Source of the DNA: a virus
Lineage: Duplodnaviria; Caudoviricetes
Virus record (IMG/VR): IMGVR_UViG_3300020045_003500
Span: 1-40,359 of that record
Strand: one strand, 5' to 3'
DNA length: 40,359 nt
The notes beneath the pieces were generated by a model that worked only from the letters and a program-made list of their open reading frames with translations, made no database searches and was not told the origin of the DNA. A program made the position numbers and the translations under genes. This document shows, piece after piece, positions 4,239 through 32,455 of the stretch; position 1 is the stretch's first letter, and the number at the start of each line of letters is the position of its first letter.

Positions 4239-5048
4239 TTAATCAAACCTCGGAATTATGCCTGCATTAGTAGCAAAAGTAAGTGCAGTTGGGTCTAAGG
4301 TAGCAGGTAGAACGCCAGCAGATACTACTGTTGTTCCTGCATAATCAGGCTCGCCAGTTATAGTTAGTAAGGCTTGATGGGCATCGGTTGTCGCCTGACT
4401 GGCAAGTAAATTCAAGTTTACCGTACCTCCATTAGCTACAACTGAAAACCAGTAATTGCCTGCCGTTACAGCAACTGGAGTAATACTTGTACTGTAAGCT
4501 GTGTTGGCGGCAGCTATACTTGGAGTAGTGCCACTTAAGATTTGAGTTTGCCCGTCTTCAGAATAAAGTACAAAATCAAATGTACTTGCAGTGGTGAAAG
4601 AACTTGAACAAGCTATCGTTACTTTACTAACAGTAATTCCGAATGGAAGGTAATACAGTCCGTGATAAGCAGTTGTATTTGCTGTAATTGCAGGGCTATC
4701 ACCAACAAGAAGTCTCATATGAGCAGGGATAGGCACCATCGTAGACACGCTCGAACTACCAGCCGTATCCCATATTGGGTTGGCACCTGCTCCTTGAGTT
4801 TTTAAGAATTTCCCAGAAGTGCCTGCGGCTAAGTTAACCCAGTTAGTGCCGTTATGGTAAATGATGTCTCCTTGTGCGCCAGAGGTAATAACTACATCGG
4901 ATAACCCGTCAAGCGTTCCACCTACAGCACTTACAAGTAACCTATGTGTTGTTGGATCGGCATAAACTACAACTGGTGTAGCGCCATCGACATCTGAGAC
5001 AGCTAGTAATGTCGGGACTCTATTATCGTCTCTTTTAGCGTTAGCCAT
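4239..5048 (-). CDS. Fibre-like structural protein
   Basis: MANAKRDDN..ADPTTHRLLV N-terminus, LDGLSDV..GDIIYHNGTNWVNL fibre-like segment, beta-sandwich-like C-terminus. Confidence 0.65.
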   Translation of the reverse strand: MANAKRDDNRVPTLLAVSDVDGATPVVVYADPTTHRLLVSAVGGTLDGLSDVVITSGAQGDIIYHNGTNWVNLAAGTSGKFLKTQGAGANPIWDTAGSSSVSTMVPIPAHMRLLVGDSPAITANTTAYHGLYYLPFGITVSKVTIACSSSFTTASTFDFVLYSEDGQTQILSGTTPSIAAANTAYSTSITPVAVTAGNYWFSVVANGGTVNLNLLASQATTDAHQALLTITGEPDYAGTTVVSAGVLPATLDPTALTFATNAGIIPRFD

Positions 5049-5051
5049 ATT

Positions 5052-5327
5052 TTAAGTTGATTTTACTAATAGTTCTCCAGTAGCTGGATCTGCGTAAATA
5101 GGAACAGGTGTTAATCCATCGGCACTCGATACGGCAATGAGTAAAGGCACACCATTATCATCCCGTTTTGCCTGGTCTCCAGACAAGTCACTCCCCGTTG
5201 ATCCGTCAGCAGTCGCAAGCCTATGAGTAGTAGGACTAGCTTTTACTAGAACAGGAGTCGAACCATCAGAATTACTTGCGGCAATTAGTGTCGGTACTCC
5301 GTTATCATCCCGTTTTGCGTTAGCCAT
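5052..5327 (-). CDS. Small protein made of two copies of the AKRDDN.VP motif
   Basis: 91 aa with an internal duplication (AKRDDNGVPTLIAAS / AKRDDNGVPLLIAVS). Confidence 0.75.
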   Translation of the reverse strand: MANAKRDDNGVPTLIAASNSDGSTPVLVKASPTTHRLATADGSTGSDLSGDQAKRDDNGVPLLIAVSSADGLTPVPIYADPATGELLVKST

Positions 5328-11532: not shown

Positions 11533-11569
11533 ATTATATATTATTGGTGTTGACTTGTCCTGTGGATAA
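11533..11569 (-). promoter_or_regulatory. DnaA box plus -10 (TATAAT) upstream of portal
   Basis: TTATCCACA (11569-11561), 22 nt, TATAAT (11538-11533); no clear -35. Confidence 0.55.
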
Positions 11570-15084: not shown

Positions 15085-16371
15085 TTAAGCCGCCCATTGA
15101 ATCTCCTCTCCGTTCTTGATAACTGTCATATCCTCTTTGTACTTGCACCATCTTGAAACTATCGCATCTACGTATTTGGGATCGAGTTCAATCATCCTTG
15201 ATTTTCTTCCTAGTTGTTCACAAGCAATCATAAGTGACCCTGATCCTGCGAACGCATCGAGAACTATATCACCTGCTTCGCTGGACCTCTTTAGCGCTCT
15301 TTCTGCTAACTGAACTGGCTTTTGTGTCGGATGAATGTATTTGTTGGTATTATCCCTTTTCTGGTAGATGATGTCCAAATTCTCTGCGAACGTTTTCTGA
15401 TCGAGTGTCCACAACTCTGAGAAGGTTGAGAACGTCATATTTTGGTAGTGTGTCTGCCCTTTCTTCCAGCCCACCATGCACGGCTCATATATTCGGTGAT
15501 AGAGTTGCCCTGGCGAGAAGATTAAGCCGTTTTTAAGCCACAAGATTATCTGACTCATGTGCCAATTAGACTCTTTGAATGCTTGCATGTTTACATCTGT
15601 TAGTCTGTTAGCGAACCACCAATAAATTGAAGCATCATCGGTTGAGAAGTCATGTAATTGTTTGAGCGATTTCTTATAGAATTCTAGCGCTTCTTCTGGT
15701 GTTTTATCATCATTAAAAATACGACCGCCTGTTCCCCCGAACTTATCGGATGAATAGCTGTACTGTTGTTTCTTCTTACCAGAATATTTGTCTGGCATCC
15801 CAGCTGACGATTGGTAGTCTATTGAATATGGAGGGTCTGTAAATATTAAACGGGCTTTTTCATCACCTAATAAGTTCTTGTATGTGTTCGCATCTTCCGA
15901 GTTTCCGCATATTATCTTGTGTTGACCTAGTTGGTAAACGTCTCCTATCTCAGTTTTTGGGACACCTACCATTGAGAGATCTGGATGATCTTCTTTGGTT
16001 TCGAGTATTAAGTCCGAGTCAAATCCTGTTAGATCTATCATTTCGAGCGAGATTTGTTTTAACTCCTCGATTACTATCTCCATATCCCAATCGGATTCAT
16101 TTAGGCGGTTATCAGCTAGTCTGTAGGATCTAGCCTTTTCTTCCGATAGGTCTACTTCAAGCGTTGGCACAAAGCTTAAACCAAGTAATTGAGCTGCGAT
16201 ATAACGACCGTGTCCGACAATAATCACACCATTCTTGTCAACTACAATCGGTTGGTTAAATCCGAACTCTCTTATAGAGTCAGCTATTTTCTTGATCTGT
16301 TTATCTGGATGCGCTTTTGCGTTCTTTGCGTACGGTTCTATCTCTGCAATTGGCCGCTCGACTATATTCAT
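15085..16371 (-). CDS. ParB/Srx N-terminal domain fused to N4/N6 DNA methyltransferase
   Basis: PYAKNAKAH..FGFNQPIVVD..GHGR (ParB-N); TDPPY, HPTQKP, VLDAFAGSGS (MTase). Confidence 0.92.
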   Translation of the reverse strand: MNIVERPIAEIEPYAKNAKAHPDKQIKKIADSIREFGFNQPIVVDKNGVIIVGHGRYIAAQLLGLSFVPTLEVDLSEEKARSYRLADNRLNESDWDMEIVIEELKQISLEMIDLTGFDSDLILETKEDHPDLSMVGVPKTEIGDVYQLGQHKIICGNSEDANTYKNLLGDEKARLIFTDPPYSIDYQSSAGMPDKYSGKKKQQYSYSSDKFGGTGGRIFNDDKTPEEALEFYKKSLKQLHDFSTDDASIYWWFANRLTDVNMQAFKESNWHMSQIILWLKNGLIFSPGQLYHRIYEPCMVGWKKGQTHYQNMTFSTFSELWTLDQKTFAENLDIIYQKRDNTNKYIHPTQKPVQLAERALKRSSEAGDIVLDAFAGSGSLMIACEQLGRKSRMIELDPKYVDAIVSRWCKYKEDMTVIKNGEEIQWAA

Positions 16372-16665
16372 TTAACTAAGGTTACTTATTGCCTTGTTTA
16401 AGTCTGCGTTAGCACTTTCACTCTCTGGGTCAGCGATTTTAATGTTAACTCTGGCATCTTCTTTGATCCCCGATATTCTGAGTATGGTCCTGATAGCTTG
16501 TGCTGTTTTACCTTCCTTGCCGATTACTTGACCACGATCCTCTTTCAATGTGTAAAGAGTAAGTAATACTCCCATGTCGTCTGTTCTAGATTCTACTCTA
16601 ATTTCTTCTGGATGATCTACTAAAGCTTTAGCGATCGTTTCTAATAGTTCTTTGGATTTCTGCAT
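16372..16665 (-). CDS. khpA: KH-domain RNA-binding protein (KhpA/YlqC-like)
   Basis: IAKALVDHPEEI...GQVIGKEGKTAQAIRTIL with GxxG loop. Confidence 0.88.
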   Translation of the reverse strand: MQKSKELLETIAKALVDHPEEIRVESRTDDMGVLLTLYTLKEDRGQVIGKEGKTAQAIRTILRISGIKEDARVNIKIADPESESANADLNKAISNLS

Positions 16666-16685
16666 TTTTAATTGTTTCGTTTTTA

Positions 16686-17288
16686 TTAGTTTACTGTGAC
16701 TGTTACTTCTTCACTCACACCATTTGTCGTGAATGTGATGGTGTGGTCTCCTGATGTTTTAAACTCATAATGAAATGGATAGTAAGAAACGAATGTCTTT
16801 TTACCGTTAGGGTAAATTGGCGTTAGGTCTCCAGTTCCGACTAGCTCTTTATTTTGACTCGCATCGGTTGCTTCTACCACAACCGTTGCATCTTTCACTA
16901 CGACTCCATCTTCATTTCTAATGATGGCGCCGATTTCTATGTAGTTTAGTTCATCTACTATCTCGGGACTAGCCTGGTATGTCCTACCAAGGCCCTTGCC
17001 TCCGATCGGACTTATGATTTCTATGGTTGTCATTGATGTATTTTGTTGTCCTTGGGTTTGTATTGGTTGAGTAACGGTGATTATTGGGACATATTGGGTC
17101 GGAATGGCGATAGTTGAGTCACTTGGGGTCGTTATGCTCGACTGGTACTCAACGATGGCATCCTGGGCGATTTCTATCGAACTGTTGGCTATTTCTCTGG
17201 CAATAGGCTCGAGTGGCGTACCAACTGACGATATGAAGAATGATAGGGCGAACTGTAGTAAAGTGATAACGGATATAAAGCTTGTCAT
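16686..17288 (-). CDS. Membrane-anchored/secreted protein with Ig-like C-terminus
   Basis: Hydrophobic N-terminus, Thr/Pro linker, beta-rich end (GDHTITFTTNGVSEEVTVTV). Confidence 0.6.
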   Translation of the reverse strand: MTSFISVITLLQFALSFFISSVGTPLEPIAREIANSSIEIAQDAIVEYQSSITTPSDSTIAIPTQYVPIITVTQPIQTQGQQNTSMTTIEIISPIGGKGLGRTYQASPEIVDELNYIEIGAIIRNEDGVVVKDATVVVEATDASQNKELVGTGDLTPIYPNGKKTFVSYYPFHYEFKTSGDHTITFTTNGVSEEVTVTVN

Positions 17289-17294
17289 GTTTCA

Positions 17295-17331
17295 ATTATA
17301 GCAGGCGGTCGGTATAGTAGCAAGTGGATAA
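17295..17331 (-). promoter_or_regulatory. Sigma70 promoter with operator and DnaA box (probably leaderless transcript)
   Basis: TTATCCAC-TTGCTA-17 nt-TATAAT-6 nt-ATG. Confidence 0.75.
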
Positions 17332-18855
17332 CTATTTCTTATCTTTCTGAGATTCCACAATGATTCCCGTGCTAGTTAAGAGTATTGAAGCGATAGACAC
17401 GGCACTCTCTACTTGAGCAATCAGCACGTCTACTGGATCTATTACTCCTACTTCCATAAACTTACCGACCTCGCCAGTGACCACGTTTTGCGCTTCGTCT
17501 GGTTCAAATTCTATCTCGTCATCCATACCCATATTTTCCCTCAATTGTTTAGCTGGATATTTCAAGGCTGCGTTGAGAATCGGGCTTGATGTTTTAAGTC
17601 TAGCCAATGCAAGCCCACTTCCACAGACAACTCCGTGGTTAAAGGCGGATTTAGTCGCATTAACAGCATCTTCCACTTTGTATTTCAAAGCCTTTCTCTC
17701 ATTCTCTGTCGGAGCACCGACTTTAATAACTGCCATTGAATTGGTAAATGTAGCAAGGCGAGCCTGTAGTTCCTGTTTCGGTCCTTCCTGACTCTCAGAT
17801 TCGATGGCCATTTTAATCATATTAACCACCTTACTCATTTCCATCTTACTGCCCTTTGGACCTACGATGATTGATTCATCACGTCTGCATATAAACTTTT
17901 CCGCACGGCCTAAGTCTGAGACTTCTGCGTTCTCTAGTTTGTCTCCTTTTGCAGAACTAAATACCTTACCGCCTGTCATTAAGGCCATATCTTCAAGGAT
18001 CGTTGACCTGTTGGTCCTGTTCGGTGACACAACCGCAACCACTAAGAATTTGCCTTGCATTCTGTTAACTACAGCTGTAGCCAATGCGGAACTTTCCATA
18101 TTGTCACAGATAACCACCAACTCTCTCTTGTTCTCGGCCGCCATTTTCTCCATGATTTTTACGATATCGTTATTCTCAGTAATCCTGTAATCGGTCATCA
18201 AGATATATGGCTTCTCAAGGATCGTTTCCATCCTTTCTGGATTTGTAATCATATACGGGCTGATATAGCCAGTAGGGATTTTTATGCCACTAGACATTTC
18301 GGTCGTAGTTTCCATAGTCGGAGACTTATCAATCGTAATCATACCTTCTTTGCCTAATTTGAAATACAAATCGGATATAGTCGTAGCAATCTTTTCGTTA
18401 TCGAATGAAATAAGCGCCACCTTTTTAAGATCCTCTTTGGTCTTTATAGGTTTGGCGCTTTTTATTAATTTTGACTTAACTTCTTCCAACCCCCTTAGTA
18501 ACTCAAGCTCTACTTTGTGACCATCGAATCTGCTTTTGCGGCTAACTTCGTTGATTATTGACTCAAGCATTAGCAATGCACCAGTCGTGCCGTCACCAAC
18601 TCTATCGTTAGTCTTAATCGCTGCTTCTCTGATGATGCTCACAATAGCGTTCTCGGCTGGATCTGATAACTCAAAGTCTCTAGCAATCTGCACACCGTCA
18701 TCTACAACCATTTTATATGGGTTCTTAGATATGATTACTTTGTTGGCCGCTGGCCCGAATGTAGGCTTTATAAAACTCACAATCTTGTTAACGGCCGACT
18801 TAATCGTATCAAACGTCTTATCGTGTACTATCCTGATTTCTGTTTCGTTCGTCAT
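17332..18855 (-). CDS. groL: Chaperonin GroEL (divergent)
   Basis: PTFGP, DDGVQIAR, VGDGTT, GYISPY, AVIKVGA.TE.E, VEDAV.AT, GVIDP. Confidence 0.95.
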   Translation of the reverse strand: MTNETEIRIVHDKTFDTIKSAVNKIVSFIKPTFGPAANKVIISKNPYKMVVDDGVQIARDFELSDPAENAIVSIIREAAIKTNDRVGDGTTGALLMLESIINEVSRKSRFDGHKVELELLRGLEEVKSKLIKSAKPIKTKEDLKKVALISFDNEKIATTISDLYFKLGKEGMITIDKSPTMETTTEMSSGIKIPTGYISPYMITNPERMETILEKPYILMTDYRITENNDIVKIMEKMAAENKRELVVICDNMESSALATAVVNRMQGKFLVVAVVSPNRTNRSTILEDMALMTGGKVFSSAKGDKLENAEVSDLGRAEKFICRRDESIIVGPKGSKMEMSKVVNMIKMAIESESQEGPKQELQARLATFTNSMAVIKVGAPTENERKALKYKVEDAVNATKSAFNHGVVCGSGLALARLKTSSPILNAALKYPAKQLRENMGMDDEIEFEPDEAQNVVTGEVGKFMEVGVIDPVDVLIAQVESAVSIASILLTSTGIIVESQKDKK

Positions 18856-19112
18856 ATTCTTATTATTGTTTGTTCTGGTTGATAAATTCTTTTGTAAATT
18901 CTCTTTGTGACTCCATTCTTTTGAGCGAAGTTACGGACATGGTCTTTCAGGTACTCGGTATTCTTCACTCTGCCTCGGTAGCCTTTATTGTATCGCTTGT
19001 GTACTCCGCATATTAAGCACTTTTCGTGTTTAGCACGTGGCGTGTCGTGAATAACTTCCATCTGATGTGGTATACCTCGGTACCTACATCCTAAGTCTCC
19101 CGTGTACCTCAT
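18852..19112 (-). CDS. Basic hypothetical protein, possible zinc binder
   Basis: C..H..CLIC; coupled to both groES and groEL. Confidence 0.55.
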   Translation of the reverse strand: MRYTGDLGCRYRGIPHQMEVIHDTPRAKHEKCLICGVHKRYNKGYRGRVKNTEYLKDHVRNFAQKNGVTKRIYKRIYQPEQTIIRI

Positions 19113-19402
19113 CAGTCCTCTACAAAGGCCAATATATCTTCGTCAAATAAGAGAATGTAATCGACCTCATCGTTACTTTTCCCTATACTAATCATTTCGC
19201 CAGCGAAGGCTGCGTACATTACACGATCACCTTTCTTGATGTCTTTTATCCCATCACCAATTGCGATTACCGTACCTATTGCCTTTTGTTCTTTTTCTAC
19301 GCTGTCAGGAGTTATGATCCCGTGTTCAGACACTTTCGGTTCTTTGCCGTCTGGTTCTACTAAAACTTGTTTGCCACGAGGGCGTATCTTTGGTTTTTTC
19401 AT
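19112..19402 (-). CDS. groS: Co-chaperonin GroES
   Basis: IRPRGKQVLV, GIITPDS, GTVIAIG, IKKGDRVMY, EDILA. Confidence 0.93.
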   Translation of the reverse strand: MKKPKIRPRGKQVLVEPDGKEPKVSEHGIITPDSVEKEQKAIGTVIAIGDGIKDIKKGDRVMYAAFAGEMISIGKSNDEVDYILLFDEDILAFVED

Positions 19403-19635
19403 CTTATGTAATAGCTTTTTAATCTCTTTAAGTTATCGAGAACAAGATTAATCTCTTTTTTCCCTACTCCGTTCATCCCTCTCATGTCTTGTAGTAAGGC
19501 CACAAGAGCATCTTGTTTTAACTGTGACGTCATCAACTTCTCAAAGGCAGTAGCAATCTTAATAATTGAAGAAGCTAACACTTCTGGTGTTTCTGGGTTC
19601 TGTTCGTTTTTAATTACTCTGACATTTCTGGCCAT
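19399..19635 (-). CDS. Hypothetical protein
   Basis: 78 aa, ATGA-coupled to groES. Confidence 0.55.
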   Translation of the reverse strand: MARNVRVIKNEQNPETPEVLASSIIKIATAFEKLMTSQLKQDALVALLQDMRGMNGVGKKEINLVLDNLKRLKSYYIR

Positions 19636-19638
19636 AGA

Positions 19639-19959
19639 TTATAGTTCTAACCTGCTAATAAAGTCTTTTATTCGACTTGTTGCATCTTGAACAACTGCTC
19701 TACCTTCTCGTATGGCAGATGGTATTAAAGCTAAGTTTTCTATAGTAACTTCCACATTATCTTTTTCAGGAGAGCTAATTCTCATAGCTGGTTCAAGCCT
19801 TTTACCAAGTTCATCTATCACTAAGGTTAGGCTTGTAACCGATTCTCTTAACGCTGAAATTTCACGACTGGTTTGACCCTCTCCTCGTTCTGTTTTAGTT
19901 TGCAAACTACCCACTAGACCACCTGCACTATATGCCCTCACTTCTGATTCTCCATTCAT
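19639..19959 (-). CDS. Hypothetical helical protein
   Basis: 106 aa in a tight operon. Confidence 0.55.
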   Translation of the reverse strand: MNGESEVRAYSAGGLVGSLQTKTERGEGQTSREISALRESVTSLTLVIDELGKRLEPAMRISSPEKDNVEVTIENLALIPSAIREGRAVVQDATSRIKDFISRLEL

Positions 19960-19963
19960 AGTT

Positions 19964-20209
19964 TTATTGTAATTCGTCTATTGTTGTATTGAGACCTTTC
20001 TTTTTATTTTCTTCGATTATTTCTTCTCTAGCTTCATCGGCTTCATCGGGAGGCATATATACCATTCCTTTCGGTCGTGGTCCTGCATTACTTATCGCAG
20101 TTCCTACCGTTCTAGCCGTGTGAAGAATGGGAGACTTAAAGAATGTAATCGTCACAACAATTAAAGTTGCAACGACTAAGCCTGCGATTAATCCTAGTAT
20201 AAATTCCAT
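19964..20209 (-). CDS. Small single-TM membrane protein
   Basis: FILGLIAGLVVATLIVVTITFF. Confidence 0.6.
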   Translation of the reverse strand: MEFILGLIAGLVVATLIVVTITFFKSPILHTARTVGTAISNAGPRPKGMVYMPPDEADEAREEIIEENKKKGLNTTIDELQ

Positions 20210-20500
20210 TTAAGCTACTTCTAAGTCTGACTTTGGTTTATCGACTTTACTTGGTTTATCACGCTGACTATCATCGTAGTAAACGGGAACAGCTTGAATA
20301 GTACCATTGGGAGCAATTGTTGCTCGTGCCATCAAGCCAATCTTGTGCTTCTCATACAAAGGGATAATTTCGCTCTGAAATACTTTTATCCTTTTCTCAA
20401 AGTCCTCTTTAGCCAACTGACGTTCGGCTATTTTAATGGCTTCTTCTTTTTTAGGATCTACTTCTTCTACAGGTTGAACTGGTACTGGTTTCTCTTTCAT
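20210..20500 (-). CDS. Hypothetical protein
   Basis: 96 aa, ATGA-coupled. Confidence 0.55.
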   Translation of the reverse strand: MKEKPVPVQPVEEVDPKKEEAIKIAERQLAKEDFEKRIKVFQSEIIPLYEKHKIGLMARATIAPNGTIQAVPVYYDDSQRDKPSKVDKPKSDLEVA

Positions 20501-20664
20501 TTGTTATTTACTTTATCTTTCTCGACCTTTTTAGGCCATCTAGCATCTGATCCTCGTTTGCCTATTTCACGCATATGTTGTCTGTTTTTAGAAACAGAAA
20601 GGCCGCCTTTTCTTCCAAGTTGTACAGCAGCAGGATTTTTCTTTTTCTTCGTTAAGTTACTCAT
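20497..20664 (-). CDS. 55-aa KGG-motif basic protein (not in ORF track)
   Basis: MSNLTKKKKNPAAVQLGRKGGLSVSKNRQHMREIGKRGSDARWPKK...; directly after a promoter. Confidence 0.8.
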   Translation of the reverse strand: MSNLTKKKKNPAAVQLGRKGGLSVSKNRQHMREIGKRGSDARWPKKVEKDKVNNK

Positions 20665-20673
20665 ATAGTTCGT

Positions 20674-20717
20674 ATCTTATACCAACCGCTTGGGATAGGC
20701 AAGTGATCTGTGGATAA
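20674..20717 (-). promoter_or_regulatory. Sigma70 promoter with operator and DnaA box
   Basis: TTATCCACA-6 nt-TTGCCT-17 nt-TAAGAT. Confidence 0.7.
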
Positions 20718-21671
20718 TTACAGGTACTCATCCCAAGTGAAACCGTTACCGAAATGGCCCCACATGGCAGTGTCCTCATAAATCGGTTGTCTTAAATCCA
20801 ATTCTCTTATTATCGATTCGGGTCTTAAATCTTCACCAGCAATCACACCTTGTTCTTGGCCGTTAACTATCAATGTAGCTTGTAGCGGTTCTGGTTTCCC
20901 GATCACATAAGCCAGATAACAGTATACTTCTTCAGCATGGAACTGTTTTAAGAATTTAACGGATAGCGCTCGAGCCATATAGGCGCCAGATCTGTCTACT
21001 TTTGTTGGGTCCTTTCCGCTAAATGCACCACCTCCAACTGGTACACGTGATCCGTAGGCATCTACTACAATCTTTCTGCCTGTTAGTCCTGTATCGGCAT
21101 CAAATCCACCGACACTCCAGTCACCAGCTTCGTTTAAGAACATTCGACCACACGATCTGCCTTTGAGCCAATCAAATACTATTTCTTCGAGTAGGAGAGT
21201 GCCGACATTTTGAAAACTAGCCACAATCGCTTGGATTCCGTCATCGTTAACAGTTACCTGAGTTTTGCCGTCATATGGGTATCTCTCGTAGATAAATCTG
21301 CATAAATCTCTTGCAAGTTGATATTCTAATGGCATCAGCTCTGGCGTTTCATTACAAGCGTATCCAACCATTATTCCTTGATCGCCAGCGCCACCCTTAT
21401 CTACGCCTTGAGCAATTTCATTCGATTGTTTTACTAAGTTCACTTGAACTCCGACATTAGGCACAATTCTCTTAACGATTGCTGGGATATCCACGAATGC
21501 ATTAGTCGTTAGTTCTCCTGTTACGGTTACTATGCCGTGGCCTCCCATCGTCTCAACTGCAACCCTACTCATTGGGTCTTGTCTTAAACATTCATCCAGT
21601 ATTGCATCGCTTATGCGGTCACAAATCTTGTCTGGGTGACGAGGCGAAACACTTTCAGCCGTCCTTATCAT
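20718..21671 (-). CDS. metK: S-adenosylmethionine synthetase
   Basis: ESVS..HPDKICD, GAGDQG, DGKTQVT, GLTGRKI..D.YG, GGGAFSGKDPTKVDRS, GHFG. ATG at 21671 overlaps the HNH stop. Confidence 0.96.
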   Translation of the reverse strand: MIRTAESVSPRHPDKICDRISDAILDECLRQDPMSRVAVETMGGHGIVTVTGELTTNAFVDIPAIVKRIVPNVGVQVNLVKQSNEIAQGVDKGGAGDQGIMVGYACNETPELMPLEYQLARDLCRFIYERYPYDGKTQVTVNDDGIQAIVASFQNVGTLLLEEIVFDWLKGRSCGRMFLNEAGDWSVGGFDADTGLTGRKIVVDAYGSRVPVGGGAFSGKDPTKVDRSGAYMARALSVKFLKQFHAEEVYCYLAYVIGKPEPLQATLIVNGQEQGVIAGEDLRPESIIRELDLRQPIYEDTAMWGHFGNGFTWDEYL

Positions 21672-22264
21672 AATAGGTTTTCCCATTTTTTTCTTATTAT
21701 CTGTCCGATAACAGACATTTCTTCTGAATTAAAAATATCTAGTTTAACAAAATTACAAATACCACAAGCCAATACAATGTTGCCTATCTCATATTTACCT
21801 TTCGGCTTTATCCTATCAATAGTAAGCCTCCCCCTCATTTTGCCTTTAGCGAATTTCTTACATAATTCTTCTGGGATCCCACAATACACACATTCTCTAG
21901 TCTGCTTCAGATACCAGTCAATAAACTCTTGTTGAGATATTGAAATATTTTCTAAACCACGTTTTACTAAACTACGATAGATGCCCTTAGGAGATTTTAT
22001 ATACAATTGCATTTTCTCTTTTACCTTCTCGGGGTTTCTAGCTATCCAATTTCTTTGATAACCTCTACTTCTTTCTCTGTTAGCAATAACATTTTCTCTA
22101 GTTCTCTTATAAGTGCAATCTTTACACACAGTCATCTTTCTGTCCTTATTAACTCTCGGATTTGCAAAAACTCTACCCGTATTAAAGAAGTTATCAAGCG
22201 ACTTGCCCTTAAGACACTTTGAGCAAACTTTCATTGGCGTTACAAATTCCGCAGTTCTAATCAT
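21668..22264 (-). CDS. HNH (homing-type) endonuclease with MetK-like first ~10 residues
   Basis: KVCSKC..CKDC zinc finger; CVYCG, LTIDRI..GKYEIGNIVLACGICNFVK. Confidence 0.85.
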   Translation of the reverse strand: MIRTAEFVTPMKVCSKCLKGKSLDNFFNTGRVFANPRVNKDRKMTVCKDCTYKRTRENVIANRERSRGYQRNWIARNPEKVKEKMQLYIKSPKGIYRSLVKRGLENISISQQEFIDWYLKQTRECVYCGIPEELCKKFAKGKMRGRLTIDRIKPKGKYEIGNIVLACGICNFVKLDIFNSEEMSVIGQIIRKKWENLL

Positions 22265-22397
22265 TTTTATTATTATACTCCATCTTCCAATCTATTTGTA
22301 GAGTTTGTCTTGATAGTTCTTTTAATTGAGGGCGGTATTCAATCATTCTTTTTCTTTTATATCTACCCAGCTGTTTTCTTTGTTAGTGTCTTTCATT

Positions 22398-22640
22398 TTA
22401 GTCATCGCTAAATGGGTTTTTATTCTTTTCTTCTTTCCAAATTTCTTTTAAGAGCTTAAATGCTTCAGCGGTTTCTTCTTCACTTAAATAAAATCCAATT
22501 CCCTCATCACCATCAGTTATGATGTAAAGTCGCCCATAATTTGAATTGCCTAAACAAATCTTAACTTTCGCTTCGTCATAATCTGGGACTTCCGCCCAAA
22601 CCTCTTCGTGTTTCTTAACTTGTTTCTTATATATCTTCAT
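22398..22640 (-). CDS. Hypothetical protein
   Basis: 80 aa, ATGA-coupled. Confidence 0.5.
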   Translation of the reverse strand: MKIYKKQVKKHEEVWAEVPDYDEAKVKICLGNSNYGRLYIITDGDEGIGFYLSEEETAEAFKLLKEIWKEEKNKNPFSDD

Positions 22641-22813
22641 TTCTTAGTGAGTTTCTTTGATTTGTTGGATAGGGGAGTGAGATAATCTATTATTTCGTTT
22701 ATTTTATCCACAATTTCCTGTTTACTAACGCTTTCGTAGTCAAGGTAAGGAATGTCGTGTTGTTCGGCATATAATGGCTCTACTACTATTTTCTCTATCT
22801 TTTTAGTTTTCAT
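22637..22813 (-). CDS. 58-aa hypothetical protein (not in ORF track)
   Basis: MKTKKIEKIVVEP...IVDKINEIIDYL...; ATGA overlaps at both ends. Confidence 0.55.
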   Translation of the reverse strand: MKTKKIEKIVVEPLYAEQHDIPYLDYESVSKQEIVDKINEIIDYLTPLSNKSKKLTKK

Positions 22814-23022
22814 TGGTTAGTCATCTGTTTAATAATCAAGTCTATACTTTTAACCGTCTTGGTTTGATTTTGGATTACGCTGTCATTAAACTTAATTTGC
22901 TCTTCTAAAACACCCCTCACTCCCCTATCTACACTTATCACCTTAAAAACTGCCCACGCTGAAGTAAAAGCTGACAGTGAAGCTAAAATTGACACCGCTA
23001 GTAATAATTTATATATTTTCAT
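22810..23022 (-). CDS. Small membrane protein
   Basis: N-terminal hydrophobic helix. Confidence 0.5.
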   Translation of the reverse strand: MKIYKLLLAVSILASLSAFTSAWAVFKVISVDRGVRGVLEEQIKFNDSVIQNQTKTVKSIDLIIKQMTNQ

Positions 23023-23072
23023 TGTTTCTTTTTCTTACCTTTTCTTTTTAGAGACATTAGTTTTTTAAGTTC

Positions 23073-23243
23073 TTATCTAGTTCCTTCGTTCATATTAGCC
23101 ATTAAAATGCTGGCATCTTGCATATCGACTGTTCCATCTCTATTCAAATCATAGTTAGGATCTACAGGTTTGTTGTTAAGCCATAGGTGAATAAATAAGG
23201 CTAAGGCTATTAAGGTTAAAGTTGCAAAGAATACTTTTATCAT
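23073..23243 (-). CDS. 56-aa TM microprotein with one dockerin/EF-hand-like repeat (not in ORF track)
   Basis: MIKVFFATLTLIALALFIHLWL...YDLNRDGTVDMQDASILMAN. Confidence 0.7.
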   Translation of the reverse strand: MIKVFFATLTLIALALFIHLWLNNKPVDPNYDLNRDGTVDMQDASILMANMNEGTR

Positions 23244-23716
23244 TTTTTTGTTGTTAGCGGATCTAGGCCAAAGTTCTCTGTTGGCGGCGCCTCGATCCCT
23301 GTTAGGTTTTGTATGTTCATGATGTAATCACAGAACTCTCCGACTCCAAGCTCCGTTGTACTGCGTTTCATTCTTACTTTCTCGCCAAGGACTTCGACCA
23401 CTCCTTGTGTTAAGAATTTTCCCTTAAATAGTTCATGCAGCCTGTCCAAGTCTGGCTCTCCTGTTTCGTAAGCGATTAATGGGAGATACACCCCCCAGTA
23501 ATAGTTATTTTGAGCGATCGTGCGTTTGGGTTTGCGGTTATTAAGAACGATATTTATCTGTTCGCCTGGCTTAAACTTGTTAATTTGATGTTGATACCAG
23601 CGTTTGTTGTTGATAGTAAGCTTGTTAGCCACGCCATCTGGTTCTCTGGTAATCGTTGCCGAGAAGCTCTGGCTATAAGTTACCTCCTGCGATTTTTTCT
23701 TCTGGTTGTTCATCAT
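23240..23716 (-). CDS. NinB/Orf-like recombination protein
   Basis: RTIAQNNYYW...LHELFK..FL...STTELGVGEF..Y. Confidence 0.7.
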   Translation of the reverse strand: MMNNQKKKSQEVTYSQSFSATITREPDGVANKLTINNKRWYQHQINKFKPGEQINIVLNNRKPKRTIAQNNYYWGVYLPLIAYETGEPDLDRLHELFKGKFLTQGVVEVLGEKVRMKRSTTELGVGEFCDYIMNIQNLTGIEAPPTENFGLDPLTTKK

Positions 23717-23894
23717 TTTCTGATCCCTGACTCATTAGAATCGTTACCAAGTTTTCTTTGGCATTCCTGATATCCTCGTTAGCATCACCAACAGTTTTAG
23801 GACTCATACCTGGTACGTACCTTTCCACTTCAGCCTTTATCAAATTCTCGAACGCATCTACAAACTGTCTTGTGCTTTTTTCTATTTCATCCAT
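23673..23894 (-). CDS. Hypothetical protein
   Basis: MDEIEK start; the track's TTG start at 23939 is the -35 box. Confidence 0.55.
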   Translation of the reverse strand: MDEIEKSTRQFVDAFENLIKAEVERYVPGMSPKTVGDANEDIRNAKENLVTILMSQGSENDEQPEEKIAGGNL

Positions 23895-23910
23895 GTTTTT
23901 GTTTCTTTTT

Positions 23911-23954
23911 ATTATAGCGAACGCTCGGTATCGTGTCAACTAAGCTGTGGATAA
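23911..23954 (-). promoter_or_regulatory. Consensus sigma70 promoter with operator and DnaA box
   Basis: TTATCCACA-6 nt-TTGACA-17 nt-TATAAT. Confidence 0.88.
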
Positions 23955-24383
23955 CTCCTTGATCTCTTGTTTTAGCGCCATTTCAATTTTACTCCACTCA
24001 TACACGCCCATTGGGTGCGGTTTTCTGTCGGCAATAACTCGTTGTAGCAAAGCCCATCTTTCTTCGCCTATCTTCTGTCGGATCAGCTCGTAATAAACCA
24101 ACGGCTCGCGTTTCTTGAAGTAGAAATGGTGATTTAGACACAAACACACAACCAGTCTTGAATCCCCGTATGAGATACTGTGAGCTCGAGAGTTTAAGTG
24201 TTCCGCTTGCAGTATAAGTTCACCATCGTTCCTGTATCCACCACAAGCGCCAGCACGAAAGTCATCGCGTAGAATGCATCCTCCATCCCTTAAAATCACT
24301 AACTGTCTGAGTGATGCCTGTATGCGGTCTTTCATTATCGCAGACGGACTGGATCCCTTTTGTTTCATTCTACTTTTCTTCAT
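23940..24383 (-). CDS. NinG/Rap-like HNH nuclease
   Basis: VILRDGGC...LQAEHL.SR...CLCLNHH; start moved to MKKSR because the tRNA occupies the upstream part. Confidence 0.65.
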   Translation of the reverse strand: MKKSRMKQKGSSPSAIMKDRIQASLRQLVILRDGGCILRDDFRAGACGGYRNDGELILQAEHLNSRAHSISYGDSRLVVCLCLNHHFYFKKREPLVYYELIRQKIGEERWALLQRVIADRKPHPMGVYEWSKIEMALKQEIKELSTA

Positions 24384-24395
24384 AAATTTTATTAG

Positions 24396-24467
24396 TGGGA
24401 TAGGGAGGGATCGAACCTCCTCCGTTGGTTTCACAAACCAGAGTGCTATCCGTTACACCACTACCCC
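24396..24467 (-). tRNA. tRNA-His (GTG), atypical: no G-1, A73, no encoded CCA
   Basis: GGGGTAG/CTATCCC acceptor, GTGT/GCAC D stem, loop TTGTGAA, GGAGG-TTCGATC-CCTCC T arm; 72 nt. Confidence 0.88.
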
Positions 24468-24471
24468 GTGG

Positions 24472-25353
24472 TTAGAATTCTAACCCTTCACCTACATCGA
24501 CCACCTGTAACCCTTGCTCGCGCCACATACGAATCACACTTGGGCGATCATCAATTACTTCTACAATCCAACTCTTATTTCTGAAATGCGATCGGAGGAT
24601 ATCAGCTTTAACTTGGTCGTCTGGTCGTTTATCATCGGCACGCCTCATAAACAGCGCTTCATAAGGTATTACTCCTTTGAATGCTTTATCGATCCATATT
24701 TTTGTTTGCTCTCTGTAAGTATCTGGTCGACCAGTAACTATGAAAATCTTACGGCCCTTATCCACATGACTCAAAAGTAAATCAATCACTTTCACGTTCA
24801 CTTCGTCAGCTGGCGCTGCAGCAAAGAACCCTTTCCAATCTTTCTTCTGACCTTCGGGGACTTTAACAAAGTGAAGGCGGTGATCGATGTTCGCAAGCGT
24901 TCCGTCTATATCACAAATCACTACTCCTTGCTCTGGAGTAGGGTATAAACCACTTTGCATGGCCATTCCGACTATCACACTCTCACCAACGCGGTCATCG
25001 CCACGCACAGCATCCCTCGCAAGACATTCTTCCATTGTAGTTGGCATTTTATAGACTTGAGTTTTTGCGTTCATTTCTTTCCCTAAATCTACCCAACTCT
25101 GCAACGTTCTTGGATTTAAGTTAGTGTCATCGATTATCACATTCACATCATCCGCCAAAAATCCTTTAGCAAGCATCCTTGCAGCCGATCGGGTAATATC
25201 TTCATTGCGACCACTCCACTTATCGAAGTGCAACATGGTACGAAGTAAATCTTTGTTGATTCTTACTCCGTTACCCATCTTTTTTAACATCGCTGCTGCT
25301 TCTGTGGATTTACCCGATGCTGGCAAACCTTGCATTATTACAATTTTACTCAT
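24472..25353 (-). CDS. Polynucleotide 5'-kinase/3'-phosphatase (T4 PseT-like)
   Basis: GLPASGKST P-loop, IIDDTN, DIDGT HAD motif, TGR, DDRPSV. Confidence 0.93.
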   Translation of the reverse strand: MSKIVIMQGLPASGKSTEAAAMLKKMGNGVRINKDLLRTMLHFDKWSGRNEDITRSAARMLAKGFLADDVNVIIDDTNLNPRTLQSWVDLGKEMNAKTQVYKMPTTMEECLARDAVRGDDRVGESVIVGMAMQSGLYPTPEQGVVICDIDGTLANIDHRLHFVKVPEGQKKDWKGFFAAAPADEVNVKVIDLLLSHVDKGRKIFIVTGRPDTYREQTKIWIDKAFKGVIPYEALFMRRADDKRPDDQVKADILRSHFRNKSWIVEVIDDRPSVIRMWREQGLQVVDVGEGLEF

Positions 25354-26444
25354 GAATCTATATCGTTTTTGAATCCACTCTGACCTTTAGGACGAATGAT
25401 GCGCCATATCGCCAAACTAGGATTTTTGTCATCGAGTATTGAAAACGCCACGCCCGTGTACCTAGTCATTTTCTTAATTATTTCAGCTTGGTCTTTTCTG
25501 TTATCTGTTACACCTTGAGCCGTGTAGTAAGCCCTGAACGCATCATCGTATATGGAAATATATTGTTCCTTCAATTTTTCTTGCACAGACCTTACCCAAT
25601 TAAAGAATTCGTCAGGAACTTTATTAAGTAAATCGTTTAAGTCTTTGCCGTCACGCAAGTGTTCCCAGATCGCAATTTCTGACACTCCAGTTACAAGTTT
25701 GTGAAGTCGCACGTATTCAGGAAACTTTATCTTCATCCTTACATTTTCTTTGGGATAGTAAATAACAAACCCTTCACTATTTGGTTCATCCATCTTACAT
25801 AAGAGGTCAATATCCGTTACAGGAATTTCTCTGGCTTCTCGAATCGGTTCTGGCATTAACATTAAACTTCCAATAGAGTTGCCACTCTGAATTTCTATCG
25901 AATCTAAATGAACAAGCCCAGAAAAGTCGTAATTAACCACGATTCTATTCTCTGGATATATTATCTCAAACAAGTGAGTAATGTTCTTATCAATGCCGTA
26001 AGGGATATCATGCATACGCACATTGGTTTCTAACCACTTCGTAGCCCATAACGCCTGATCGGATGTAAAAGAGCCTCTGGTAGCAATTTGAGTGCGCCCG
26101 TTGAGGGTATACATGATACCGAGTGAACCATCCAATTTTTGAGTTACTAACGGATGACCCTTTGGTATCTCAATGCCTTTCGTGATCCACTCCCCATAGT
26201 TAAAGAATTTAGGGAATGGTCGCGCTAGTATCTCGCCTGTTTCAACGTTTAAGATTAAGCCACGGCATTGGGTAGTTACTTTATCCCAAGCATGAGAGAA
26301 CTGACAGAGCTGCGTGTAGTTAAAAATCCGCACATTTGGATCTTCTGGATGGGATTGTTCCGAGATTAACTTTTTTTCGATGTACGGAAGTATCTCTGCG
26401 TAACTTGGCACCTCTTTGAACACTTTAACTTCACCGTTTATCAT
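25350..26444 (-). CDS. RNA ligase (T4 Rnl1-like)
   Basis: CRGLI, ARPFPKFFN, KLDGSL (motif I), ATRGSF, FEII, EGFVI, KIK. Confidence 0.92.
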   Translation of the reverse strand: MINGEVKVFKEVPSYAEILPYIEKKLISEQSHPEDPNVRIFNYTQLCQFSHAWDKVTTQCRGLILNVETGEILARPFPKFFNYGEWITKGIEIPKGHPLVTQKLDGSLGIMYTLNGRTQIATRGSFTSDQALWATKWLETNVRMHDIPYGIDKNITHLFEIIYPENRIVVNYDFSGLVHLDSIEIQSGNSIGSLMLMPEPIREAREIPVTDIDLLCKMDEPNSEGFVIYYPKENVRMKIKFPEYVRLHKLVTGVSEIAIWEHLRDGKDLNDLLNKVPDEFFNWVRSVQEKLKEQYISIYDDAFRAYYTAQGVTDNRKDQAEIIKKMTRYTGVAFSILDDKNPSLAIWRIIRPKGQSGFKNDIDS

Positions 26445-26710
26445 CGTGGTACTTTTACTCTATTCTCATCGTAAAACGACCCGACTGGTTTCCAGAATTT
26501 ATACAACATTTCATCATAAGAAACAGACTGAAAGTAATCGTAAGGTTCTTGCCAGTTAAAACCATTTTTCATTAACCATTTTGCTTTTTCAGAAGCCATG
26601 TCCAAGATTCTACGTCTTTCTTCTGCCACCCAGTTATTTCTTAACATCAGAAATAAACAAAGTGCTTGTATACAAAGAAAAAATGAAATTAGTAAGTAAT
26701 TGTAATTCAT
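26441..26710 (-). CDS. Small membrane protein
   Basis: MNYNYLLISFFLCIQALCLFLML; ATGA-coupled. Confidence 0.55.
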   Translation of the reverse strand: MNYNYLLISFFLCIQALCLFLMLRNNWVAEERRRILDMASEKAKWLMKNGFNWQEPYDYFQSVSYDEMLYKFWKPVGSFYDENRVKVPR

Positions 26711-26928
26711 AGCTCTGTAATCTTGTACTGACTTCCTGTTAGCCAAGCAATGATTTCGACTATATCGTCTTTGGCTATTTTTTCTTTCCAGACTTCATCG
26801 TTCGGATCGGACATAATCTGGGTAGCGAATTCTCTAAGTTGCGCTTCGTTTATTGGATTATCTGGAGGCATGATCGTTCCGATCGGGGCCTCGATTTTAT
26901 AAAGTTTTTGTTGTGTTTCGTTATTCAT
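26707..26928 (-). CDS. Hypothetical protein
   Basis: 73 aa. Confidence 0.55.
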   Translation of the reverse strand: MNNETQQKLYKIEAPIGTIMPPDNPINEAQLREFATQIMSDPNDEVWKEKIAKDDIVEIIAWLTGSQYKITEL

Positions 26929-27079
26929 CGATTTTTTTTAATCTTCTAAGTTTGCGACCTGATAGTTCTGTTTGGCTGATTCCGCATTTAGTGCATTCAG
27001 CTCCTGGTATCGGGAAGTTATGACCAAACCTCTGGTTGTAACAATCTGCATCTTTTTTTAACTGTTCTCTGTCTAACAT
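26921..27079 (-). CDS. 52-aa zinc-ribbon microprotein (not in ORF track)
   Basis: MLDREQLKKDADCYNQRFGHNFPIPGAECTKCG... Confidence 0.55.
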   Translation of the reverse strand: MLDREQLKKDADCYNQRFGHNFPIPGAECTKCGISQTELSGRKLRRLKKIDE

Positions 27080-27245
27080 ATTATCTTTAGTTACTTTAAT
27101 AACGTTAGTGGTAATATTATCTATTGTTGTTGTTGTACCTGTGGATAACTCGGGTCATTTCCTGAAAATTCTCTATTCTATTGGGGTTTTCGAGTGTTTT
27201 ACTTGTGGATGAACTGTGGATAACCTGTTAGTTACCTGTGGACTT
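27080..27245. other. Putative DnaA-dependent replication origin (oriC-like)
   Basis: Four co-oriented boxes (two degenerate) at 11-bp pitch (27237, 27226, 27215, 27204); perfect box at 27140 followed by GG, a trinucleotide run and an AT-rich tract. Confidence 0.75.
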
Positions 27246-27654
27246 AGAAAGGCAGGTCGGACTCGTCTATCTGGACAGTCGGTACTTCTGGTTCGGCCTG
27301 TACCGTGTCGGTTTCGTCTGTCTTACTTCTCTTGTGTCCGAATTGCATACTATCGACTACTATTTCGGTTGTCTGCCTCTTACTGCCGTCTTTGGCTTCC
27401 CACGATCTGGTTTGTAGTCGACCTTCTACGTATAAACCATTTCCTTTAGTCATGTATTGTTTAATCAGCTCCGCTGTTTTCCCGAAAGCAACTAGATTGT
27501 GAAACTCTGCGGATTCTTGTTTCTGGCCATCTTTACCTCTCCACGTTCTATTTGTAGCGAGCGAGAAATTACACACATCAGTTCCTGATGGTAGCTTCTT
27601 GAGTTCAGGGTCACGAGTTAAGTTACCGTACAAAAACACTTTATTTATAAACAT
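27244..27654 (-). CDS. ssb: Single-stranded DNA-binding protein
   Basis: NKVFLYGNLTRDPE, VEGRLQTRSW, acidic DLPF tail. Confidence 0.97.
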   Translation of the reverse strand: MFINKVFLYGNLTRDPELKKLPSGTDVCNFSLATNRTWRGKDGQKQESAEFHNLVAFGKTAELIKQYMTKGNGLYVEGRLQTRSWEAKDGSKRQTTEIVVDSMQFGHKRSKTDETDTVQAEPEVPTVQIDESDLPF

Positions 27655-27658
27655 CTAG

Positions 27659-28309
27659 TTATAGTAGCTCTTTTTGGCATAGTTCTTGTATGCCCGACCA
27701 TGCATTTCGAATGCGCTTGGTCATTTTTATTATGTCCGTCATATCTCGTTTGGTAGGGAAGCGCCAGATCTCGCCAGTTGGTCTTAAACGGCCGTCAGGA
27801 TCGTATTCCACCTCTACGTTCACTAATTCTATGTCTTGTGGTATTTTGCCCGTTTTTAGCCAAATGGCGGTGGTGTAGAAGCCAATCTGGCCTGACTCAT
27901 CTACCATCTTTTGAGTCCAACGTCTCACAGAAGTCTTGTATTCTTTGAAAGCCGTGTAATCAGACTTAGCGGTGTCGGGTAATGAGAGAAGGGGAATCGG
28001 GTCTTTACCATTTTCTAAGACTGGCACAAATATATTTGTCTTATCTCTTTCGAAGTATATTTTGATTCCTTTCTCATCCGTAACTGGTCTGTCCATCAGT
28101 TCGAATTTGGGTAATTTTGCGGCCATTAGGTCGAGGAATGGGTCGCCAGTTGCTTCGTCTGACTCCAATCCCTCGGCAAATTGGCTACCATAGGCCATAT
28201 TTCGGTTTATGCGCTGTTTTTTCTTGTAAATGTACTGTTCAACGTAAAGTTCGGGCGATCGTTCAAACAGGGTCATTTGGCTGAAGCTGAGGTATGGTTT
28301 TGGGGTCAT
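27659..28309 (-). CDS. PD-(D/E)XK exonuclease (recombination partner of Bet)
   Basis: YLSFSQ, PD..EYKTS, Q..FY motifs. Confidence 0.75.
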   Translation of the reverse strand: MTPKPYLSFSQMTLFERSPELYVEQYIYKKKQRINRNMAYGSQFAEGLESDEATGDPFLDLMAAKLPKFELMDRPVTDEKGIKIYFERDKTNIFVPVLENGKDPIPLLSLPDTAKSDYTAFKEYKTSVRRWTQKMVDESGQIGFYTTAIWLKTGKIPQDIELVNVEVEYDPDGRLRPTGEIWRFPTKRDMTDIIKMTKRIRNAWSGIQELCQKELL

Positions 28310-31877: not shown

Positions 31878-31963
31878 AGTTGCTCTTTCGCAAGAGCTAT
31901 CCCTTTATTACACACTCAGGGATTAACTATATTATTCTTAACCTTTCTCTGTGCCAATATATG

Positions 31964-32035
31964 TTCCACCTGTTGGAATTGCACCAACTACCTTTGGCTT
32001 ATGAGACCAAAATGCATCTGTTACACCTAGGCGGG
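31964..32035 (-). tRNA. Degenerate tRNA(CAT)-like element (Met/fMet-like)
   Basis: CCCGCCT/AGGTGGA acceptor (C1:A72), TTGGT-CTCATAA-GCCAA, GTTGG-TGCAATT-CCAAC; lacks U8 and the D-loop GG. Confidence 0.65.
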
Positions 32036-32038
32036 ATC

Positions 32039-32209
32039 TAAGAGGCTTAAGCGGAAGCTTGGGTTTGTGATGACTACATTTGGTCGAAGAAATATGGTCA
32101 TCGGAGACATTGGGCTTTCATCACCAGCTTCCGCTTCAGTCGCAGTGCAATGAATGCATACTGCTGTTGTTGGTGATACATCGTACCAAGCTCCTGCTTA
32201 AACCTCTTA
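32039..32209 (-). ncRNA. Putative 171-nt structured RNA closed by a 24-bp stem
   Basis: 32209-32186 pairs with 32062-32039 (1 mismatch, 2 G-U), with internal hairpins. Confidence 0.6.
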
Positions 32210-32303
32210 ATTCAGTTGTAAAGGAGAGGGCTTTGACACGAATGTCGCAGCCCTCGAGTGTGGGAGGAGTGAGTCTCAAAATAGAGACTCGGTGGGATAG
32301 ATT

Positions 32304-32320
32304 TGGATCACCTCCTTTCT
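32304..32320 (-). promoter_or_regulatory. 17-nt perfect complement of the canonical 16S rRNA 3' tail (extended SD), no start codon
   Basis: Minus strand reads AGAAAGGAGGTGATCCA. Confidence 0.75.
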
Positions 32321-32400
32321 AAATGAACTGGTGAGGAAGTTAAGTCCTAATTGTGCCGTAGCACATGAGGGTCGATGCCCTACGTTGGGTTCGGACCTAA

Positions 32401-32455
32401 CTCCCTCGTTCCTGCTCTTCTCCTTTCCTTATGGGAGACGAGCAGAGCCAGAGAG
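32401..32455 (-). other. Long RNA hairpin, copy 2 of the two-copy motif
   Basis: TCTGCTC-G-TCTCC...GGAGA-A-GAGCAGG directly after the holin stop. Confidence 0.65.

Follow-up and report, generated by a model that had tools for sequence, protein, structure and literature searches.

Bacterial origins of the BUS type are described by a rule that asks for a DnaA box with at most 2 mismatches, and for at least 3 trios with a central adenine within 16 bp of that box (PMC8287927). The same source finds a tandem pair of co-oriented boxes at the trios in 57% of origins, a feature that is not obligatory, and it already suspects that trios without a middle adenine exist. In B. subtilis, it is residue Asn187 of DnaA that reads the middle adenine of the trio, and with T or G in its place both strand separation and initiation are reduced (PMC10721633). 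Two other systems are also relevant: in T. maritima, working extended trios can lie farther from the box (PMC10316083), and in E. coli, TTGT is a single-strand motif of DnaA (PMC10797057).

We have analyzed an element of 166 bp that lies just after the ssb gene of a phage. Its likeness to the BUS of bacterial oriC lies in the shared orientation of its boxes, in the in-register triplets that adjoin a box on the TGTGGATAA strand, in an AT-rich tract beyond these triplets, and in a cluster of boxes upstream. It is unlike the BUS in that it sits on a phage, in the initiator slot, and has a single proximal box (PMC8287927, PMC10721633), and in that its four proximal triplets have a middle T, with canonical triplets starting at 19 bp. 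The T. maritima extended trios are alike in that the working trios there are farther from the box (PMC10316083). The E. coli DUE, with its motifs TTGT and TTATT, is alike in that the element has TTGT four times on the strand that reads the box as TGTGGATAA (PMC10797057); however, no 13-mers are seen in the element, and E. coli is remote from the likely host. Iteron plasmid replicons are alike in being mobile elements that use host DnaA sites near their replication slot (PMC10797057). The T5-like injection-stop pairs are also ordered DnaA boxes in a phage non-coding region, but as described they lie in inverted repeats, away from the T5 origins, with a proposed role in injection and no mention of trios (bioRxiv 10.1101/866236). 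Iteron and lambdoid replicons differ from the element in requiring their own initiator (O or Rep) together with iterons, and none was found in this phage. Lambdoid replicons (lambda pO) have helper boxes for host DnaA alongside their own initiator O and its iterons. The combination that characterizes the lambdoid O/DnaD-like class, a wHTH initiator gene plus iterons, was not found in the phage, and initiators were found in 38 of its relatives.

The phage and its origin-like element

The window, that is, the whole stretch of 40,359 nucleotides that was analyzed, is a complete circular phage record of 40 kb (IMGVR_UViG_3300020045_003500; 121-bp terminal repeat, class direct terminal repeats, 100% complete). 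All of its sizeable genes lie on the minus strand. PHROG and Pfam identify capsid, terminase, RecT, SSB, NinB and accessory genes, and many of the ORFs have no match in either library. The original prediction took this phage to have no initiator of its own, and our searches of the circle agree with it. Among 60 phage ORFs, no initiator, loader, helicase, primase, polymerase or integrase has a PHROG or Pfam match, and 47 further ORFs (164 are listed in all) have no replication-gene match in PHROG. The 882 six-frame stop-to-stop segments of the circle were compared with 69 initiators and loaders taken from relatives, and the lowest E-value, 0.007, belonged to an HNH-type protein.

The left border of the slot is ssb (27244..27654, minus strand; Pfam SSB E-value 5.8e-39, PHROG 44), and its right border is a conserved 73-aa gene (26707..26928, minus strand). 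A conserved 216-aa gene between recT and ssb (27659..28309, minus strand), with no library match, serves as the marker of the phage family; we provisionally call it exo, from its position and a PD-(D/E)XK-like pattern. Directly after the element comes a 52-aa ORF (26921..27079, minus strand), which has no PHROG or Pfam match and no longer homologue, and whose Atlas clusters are all unnamed.

Elsewhere in the genome, the accessory genes at 15085-26444 include GroEL, GroES, KhpA, SAM synthetase and a ParB-fused DNA methyltransferase. In the same region, an RNA ligase with polynucleotide kinase adjoins tRNA-His, and together they are likely a tRNA-repair module. A stretch of ~570 bp (31880-32455) has no long sense ORF and several hairpin-like stretches, and contains a weak tRNA match (31964-32035; Rfam 40 bits, not called by ARAGORN). 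A search for Rfam families across the whole genome gave two tRNA matches only, neither in the element.

A Patescibacterium is the likely host. Across 185,579 prokaryotic genomes, the marker gene occurs in 2 contigs, which bear the labels Parcubacteria and Moraniibacteriota, and it is also present in one further genome of the class to which the Moraniibacteriota genome belongs (2 of 401 including the first). These contigs may be free phage contigs that were binned along with the host genomes. DnaA was found in 144 of the 151 genomes that were sampled from the host phylum.

The element is read on the minus strand, and we count the mismatches of its 9-mers against TTATCCACA. It begins with four 9-mers at a pitch of 11 bp: a first, degenerate one with 3 mismatches that overlaps the ssb stop codon (27245-27237), a second with 4 mismatches (27234-27226), a perfect DnaA box (27223-27215), and a box with 1 mismatch (27212-27204). 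The first two are too degenerate to count as boxes alone and count only through the pitch; degenerate units like the second occur in other phage arrays. A spacer of 55 bp (27149..27203) leads to the proximal DnaA box (27148-27140), which is again perfect and would be the entry point for unwinding. After GG comes a TAC-AAC run, which on the plus strand is (TTG)4 (27124..27135); it starts 4 bp from the proximal box, and its triplets are putative variant DnaA-trios. The last part (27080..27123, minus strand) combines distal in-register triplets, the canonical ATA, TTA and CTA among them, with an AT-rich tract, and would be the unwinding element. The layout claimed in the original prediction, with its four 9-mers at 11-bp pitch, 55-bp spacer, box followed by GG and AT-rich tract, is thus present in all its parts and at the spacing it gave.

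We find this element to be a real, non-random feature. Perfect boxes number 9 in the phage genome, against a mean of 0.47 in Markov-3 simulations (0 of 300 reach 9), and sites with at most 1 mismatch are in total near chance (17 vs. 13). Three boxes of the same orientation, none with more than 1 mismatch, come together within 100 bp in 1 of 300 simulations, and in 0.7% of trials that scatter the 14 observed minus-strand sites at random. The (TTG)4 is the genome's only trinucleotide run of four copies, and 16 of the 20 triplets after the proximal box end in A, which is equalled at 14 of ~80,000 positions. AT content over 27080-27137 is 78%, against 58% for the genome, and in a ranking by nearest-neighbour energy only one 60-bp window of the genome is less stable than that at 27065 (its rank is eighth with 40-bp windows and fifth with 100-bp windows). 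In hosts, 39.0 Mb contain 623 perfect boxes (16 per Mb), and the reversed control has 259. Phages commonly carry box arrays at 11-bp pitch, with ~160 stretches for one pattern, so the array alone is weak evidence, and it is the slot and the layout that carry the argument.

The exact junction pattern of the element has 0 matches in viral contigs, and BLASTN of the element against 50,697 annotated phages gives 4 short weak matches, none of them informative. Skew, whether total or at four-fold sites, shows no inversion in the phage or in 5 related records, and no common pattern among relatives. We dismissed a structured RNA or a hairpin origin because the strand folds no better than shuffled sequences (179 of 200 shuffles fold as well).

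Boxes of a different type are scattered over the phage genome. Single minus-strand boxes stand 22-39 bp before a -10-like hexamer at 11561, 17323, 20709, 23946, 30170, 31136 and 32771, and these are likely DnaA-controlled phage promoters. They account for 7 of the 9 sense boxes. In relatives, such a hexamer follows 53 of 69 boxes of this kind, at distances that peak at 21-23 and at 30-32 bp and so differ by one helical turn; in hosts the pairing is present but weaker (24 of 41 genomes). Single promoter boxes are found family-wide, even directly before initiator genes, and 1 to 5 perfect boxes are present in each complete relative that has an initiator. Because initiator-bearing relatives share them, the promoter boxes say nothing special about the replication of this phage, and the proposal that they imply a DnaA-hijacking lifestyle does not stand.

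Could the element itself have come from promoter-type boxes that were duplicated by slippage, next to a microsatellite arisen by chance, with no function as an origin? Relatives do have one box-plus-promoter at the equivalent position, the proximal box overlaps with the one weak sigma-70-like site that was found (0.9 expected), and the three-trio rule is a loose one that 19-40% of random positions in the phage genome satisfy. But of the sense boxes of the phage, only the two perfect ones in the element lack a -10-like hexamer at 22-39 bp (there is none at 21-39 bp), both the cluster and the repeat are rare by simulation, and the three-part layout is found in three divergent lineages. We regard such an accident as very improbable.

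The initiator slot in the phage family

Family loci were collected by the marker gene and RecT. We used this phage, L001, L003-L080 and L254-L272, and excluded the weaker RecT matches L273-L332 from the slot count. Dereplication results in 74 lineages, of which 32 are too short for typing and 42 are informative. Typing covers the DNA seen: in it, 38 of the 42 lineages have an initiator without an array, 3 have an array without an initiator, 1 has neither, and none has both (Fisher p 3.5e-4). The array lineages are this phage, L022 and L023/L024; in all three, boxes at 11-bp pitch are followed by a spacer, one perfect box, triplets and an AT-rich tract. The L022 and L023/L024 contigs are only 1.5-3 kb long, and among the array lineages genome-wide absence of an initiator is established for this phage alone.

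Initiators were called using the relatives' own ORFs as queries; 16 of the 38 were checked in PHROG, where all 16 match initiator, O-like or DnaD-like families, and the others were called by similarity. They lie at most 1.3 kb after the marker gene in 27 lineages, farther downstream in 10, and upstream in 1. The conserved 73-aa gene comes after the initiator region in 7 relatives and after the array in L022 and L024, and all three arrays precede it. As to conservation of the array near ssb, the layout does recur in the slot of two other lineages.

The three arrays resemble each other in organization. Measured from start to start, the last array box and the proximal box are 64 bp apart in this phage, 52 bp in L023 and 76 bp in L022, each of these distances being near a whole number of helical turns (n = 3). 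The 9-mer of the fourth box (27204..27212) also ends the array of L022. An alignment of the three arrays and one host tract has the layout in common, and base-level homology is not convincing. In the marker-gene tree the three array lineages are grouped in 0 of 200 bootstrap trees, and the supported branches are compatible with one origin.

An array of boxes may also serve to dock or titrate host DnaA, either as a datA-like sink or for the control of downstream genes, and the phage would then replicate by recombination-dependent restart, using RecT, a nuclease, NinB and host restart proteins. Sites like datA and DARS have an IHF or Fis site and an effect on the nucleotide state of DnaA. Phage box arrays are common and often without trios, the phage has genes for RecT and NinB, and one relative, G424 (L009; linear, 58.6 kb, 94% complete, 9 perfect boxes), has neither array nor recognizable initiator, so the family can apparently dispense with both. 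The T5-like box pairs are another case of boxes away from origins (bioRxiv 10.1101/866236), and TTG trios work poorly for B. subtilis DnaA (PMC10721633). A separate proximal box, in-register triplets and a tract of low stability, however, would all be superfluous in a sink. Moreover, the two other slot lineages carry canonical trios at modal spacing, and the 38 initiator-bearing lineages have the same recombination genes and yet, in the DNA seen, no arrays. On these grounds we hold docking or titration to be unlikely. G424 also has a long gene block that by eye resembles glycosyltransferases and sugar enzymes.

The element could also be the origin for a phage initiator that goes unrecognized (the 52-aa ORF, for instance, or a different orphan) and for which DnaA is no more than a helper, as in iteron plasmids, or it could be the remnant of a deleted initiator. 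There are many phage ORFs without a library match from which to choose. The array of L022 is followed by a 106-aa ORF (L022:1521-1841) whose nearest named Atlas clusters are Rep C-terminal domains (0.82-0.83, a lead only), and by eye the 55-bp spacer holds a stretch like the initiator linker repeats of some relatives. What makes this explanation quite improbable is that iteron-like repeats other than the box units are not seen in the element, that no long sense-strand open frame spans it, that the 52-aa ORF has no longer homologue and is different from the ORFs after the other two arrays, and that the initiator genes of relatives have no array within or next to them.

The ORFs found after the other two arrays deserve a description. 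The one in L022 has stand-alone homologues of ~85-100 aa on host chromosomes, in 15 of 401 genomes (L333-L347), mostly just before def-like and fmt-like genes (labels by eye). It is possible that this 106-aa protein is a helicase-loading adaptor. It has 0 relatives in viral contigs and no homologue in this phage. In L024, a 75-aa ORF with a helix-turn-helix comes after the array (L024:1152-1379); its PHROG match is weak and unnamed, and its helix-turn-helix appears to resemble the DnaA domain IV signature.

The initiator genes of the relatives have N-terminal and C-terminal domains that are freely recombined between lineages, and the slot is therefore a recombination hot spot. In L010, L028 and L057, short repeats and an inverted copy of the repeat from the initiator linker both stand ahead of the initiator gene, in the region after ssb.

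The TTG run and the origins of likely hosts

Compared with the published rule (PMC8287927), the perfect box at 27140-27148 is within the mismatch limit, and the first three trios with a central A begin 19 bp from it, beyond the limit of 16 bp; in L022 and L023 the canonical trios stand at 12 and 13 bp. The tandem pair is absent, since the proximal box is single and the next one is 55 bp upstream, and an AT-rich, easily melted tract does follow the trios. Because its canonical run starts at 19 bp, the element is not a member of the BUS-type oriC class by the published trio rule; by layout and position, it appears to work like one.

Since the TTG run fails the rule, and trios without the adenine are suspected in PMC8287927, we examined the origins of hosts. 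Regions after dnaA numbered 113; parsing succeeded for 106 of them, of which 84 fit the published rule. Host origins mostly have an overlapping box pair with CTA/TTA triplets. In 61 host tracts, CAA is the commonest triplet that interrupts canonical runs (9; the next has 7), and two hosts with CAA-dominated runs carry Thr or Ser where most have Asn. We placed the site equivalent to Asn187 by the spacing of Asn187, Ile190, Ile193 and Arg202 (PMC10721633), without aligning the B. subtilis DnaA itself. The sample, which is enriched for one order, consists of 127 hosts examined, 120 aligned, and 95 with a parsed downstream region.

We say that an origin has a CAA/CAG run if three in-register triplets of the CAA/CAG type lie within 16 bp of the box and are followed by an AT-rich tail, a definition made after seeing the data. 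Such box-proximal CAA/CAG (TTG/CTG) runs are found in 9 of the 14 hosts with Ser, Thr or His at the site, in 2 of 76 with Asn and in 1 of 5 others, counts that are not independent because kin share traits. The 7 clades with Ser, Thr or His divide into 3 with a clear run, 1 in which it is doubtful (L365, at an upstream box) and 3 in which it is missing; one of these last, L082 (Thr), has a canonical-like tract and was not parsed for the count of 9 in 14. A CAA/CAG pattern follows a random position in 0.3-0.4% of cases, and in 0.05% when the AT-rich tail is included.

The proximal box is the only one of the phage's 17 boxes that passes the CAA/CAG test, and it also ranks best among the 17 on a trio score trained on host origins. 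The order of box, 4-5 bp, CAA/CAG run and AT-rich tail is shared with Patescibacteria dnaA-dnaN origins: the 4-bp spacer between box and run is as in L518, L525 and L528, spacers of 4-5 bp with the triplets are also seen in L533 and L534, and the spacer is longer in L348, L503 and L377. These eight Patescibacteria origins, in which CAA/CAG triplets go with Ser, Thr or His, are a finding in their own right. The original prediction spoke of a mimic of a bacterial oriC. In layout the element does resemble host dnaA-dnaN origins, but it is no copy of their sequence: its proximal box is single where theirs are mostly overlapping pairs, and the likeness that was found is not one of alignable sequence. 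The prediction was also right that the run reads TTG on the plus strand, and not the canonical TAG/TAA; for this non-canonical run we now have counterparts in hosts.

Two of the three family-bearing genomes belong to one class, and a strict pattern run over 401 genomes of it revealed no TTG-trio origin: it had 12 matches, vs. 15 in the control, and not one was beside dnaA. Among 401 host-phylum genomes, the pattern (CAA)3CA had 14 matches, and the interval from dnaA to dnaN contained none of them; L348 shows this pattern to be too strict.

We also tried to assign the host by the identity of its KhpA to that of the phage, and rejected this approach: identities are 45-49% in 5 Ser/Thr/His genomes and 40-57% in 58 of 61 others, with no signal that separates them. 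The family marker has 0 matches in the 5 host genomes of the Ser/Thr/His type.

A pattern scan of viral contigs returned 15 matches, of which two, L232 and L235, pass the CAA/CAG test, and 13 are in or overlap ORFs or do not have the layout. L232 (~4990-5200) and L235 (218-241) are unrelated viral contigs in which a box is followed by a CAA run and then by an AT-rich tract; L232 has a full array with a tandem pair, ahead of terminase-like genes. Four other unrelated viral contigs, L107, L109, L182 and L190, have a box pair, ~50 bp, a single box, canonical trios and an AT-rich tract.

A proposed mechanism and what it would mean

We think that the element is quite probably a phage replication origin that is opened by host DnaA, in place of an initiator gene. 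The phage likely borrows the DnaA of its host, because the origin layout sits where most relatives keep their initiator gene. By analogy with the BUS model, ATP-DnaA of the host would gather on the 11-bp array and the proximal box, and polymerize onto the TTG-bearing strand. The DnaA filament would then melt the AT-rich tract, after which the host helicase, primase and polymerase would be loaded, with the phage SSB helping. With less conviction, we suggest from the host origins that a host DnaA with Ser, Thr or His at the site equivalent to Asn187 may be what reads the TTG trios. If the host DnaA has Asn instead, the distal canonical triplets could serve, like the extended trios of T. maritima (PMC10316083). 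That the phage replicates as a minichromosome, and possibly switches later to recombination-dependent replication, as the original prediction had it, finds no support in our analysis.

A more general picture can be drawn, which is tentative and on the doubtful side. The slot would be an exchangeable cassette, filled either by a phage initiator or by a host-type DnaA origin of 150-200 bp, and TTG would be a second trio code, read by DnaA proteins with Ser, Thr or His. The origin would then set the host range, and would record a natural change in the single-strand specificity of DnaA.

In the literature searched, with most subscription journals outside its scope, we found no phage that swaps its initiator for an oriC-type module. 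Nor did we find TTG trios in Patescibacteria there; Table S2 of PMC8287927 may contain relevant origins. Both the exchange with an initiator gene in the slot and the link of trio sequence to a DnaA residue are specific, and each can be tested directly.

The origins with CAA/CAG triplets in Patescibacteria are candidates for the trios without a middle adenine suspected in PMC8287927. The link of the trio to one residue of DnaA offers a direct test of how DnaA reads single-stranded DNA, and a way of narrowing down the hosts for phages of uncultured bacteria. If our reading of the element is true, it is possible for a tailed phage to lose its initiator and to begin replicating from a copy of the logic of its host's origin, which may account for part of the many phage genomes that have no initiator. 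Replication of this phage would then be tied to the DnaA state of a tiny symbiotic host.
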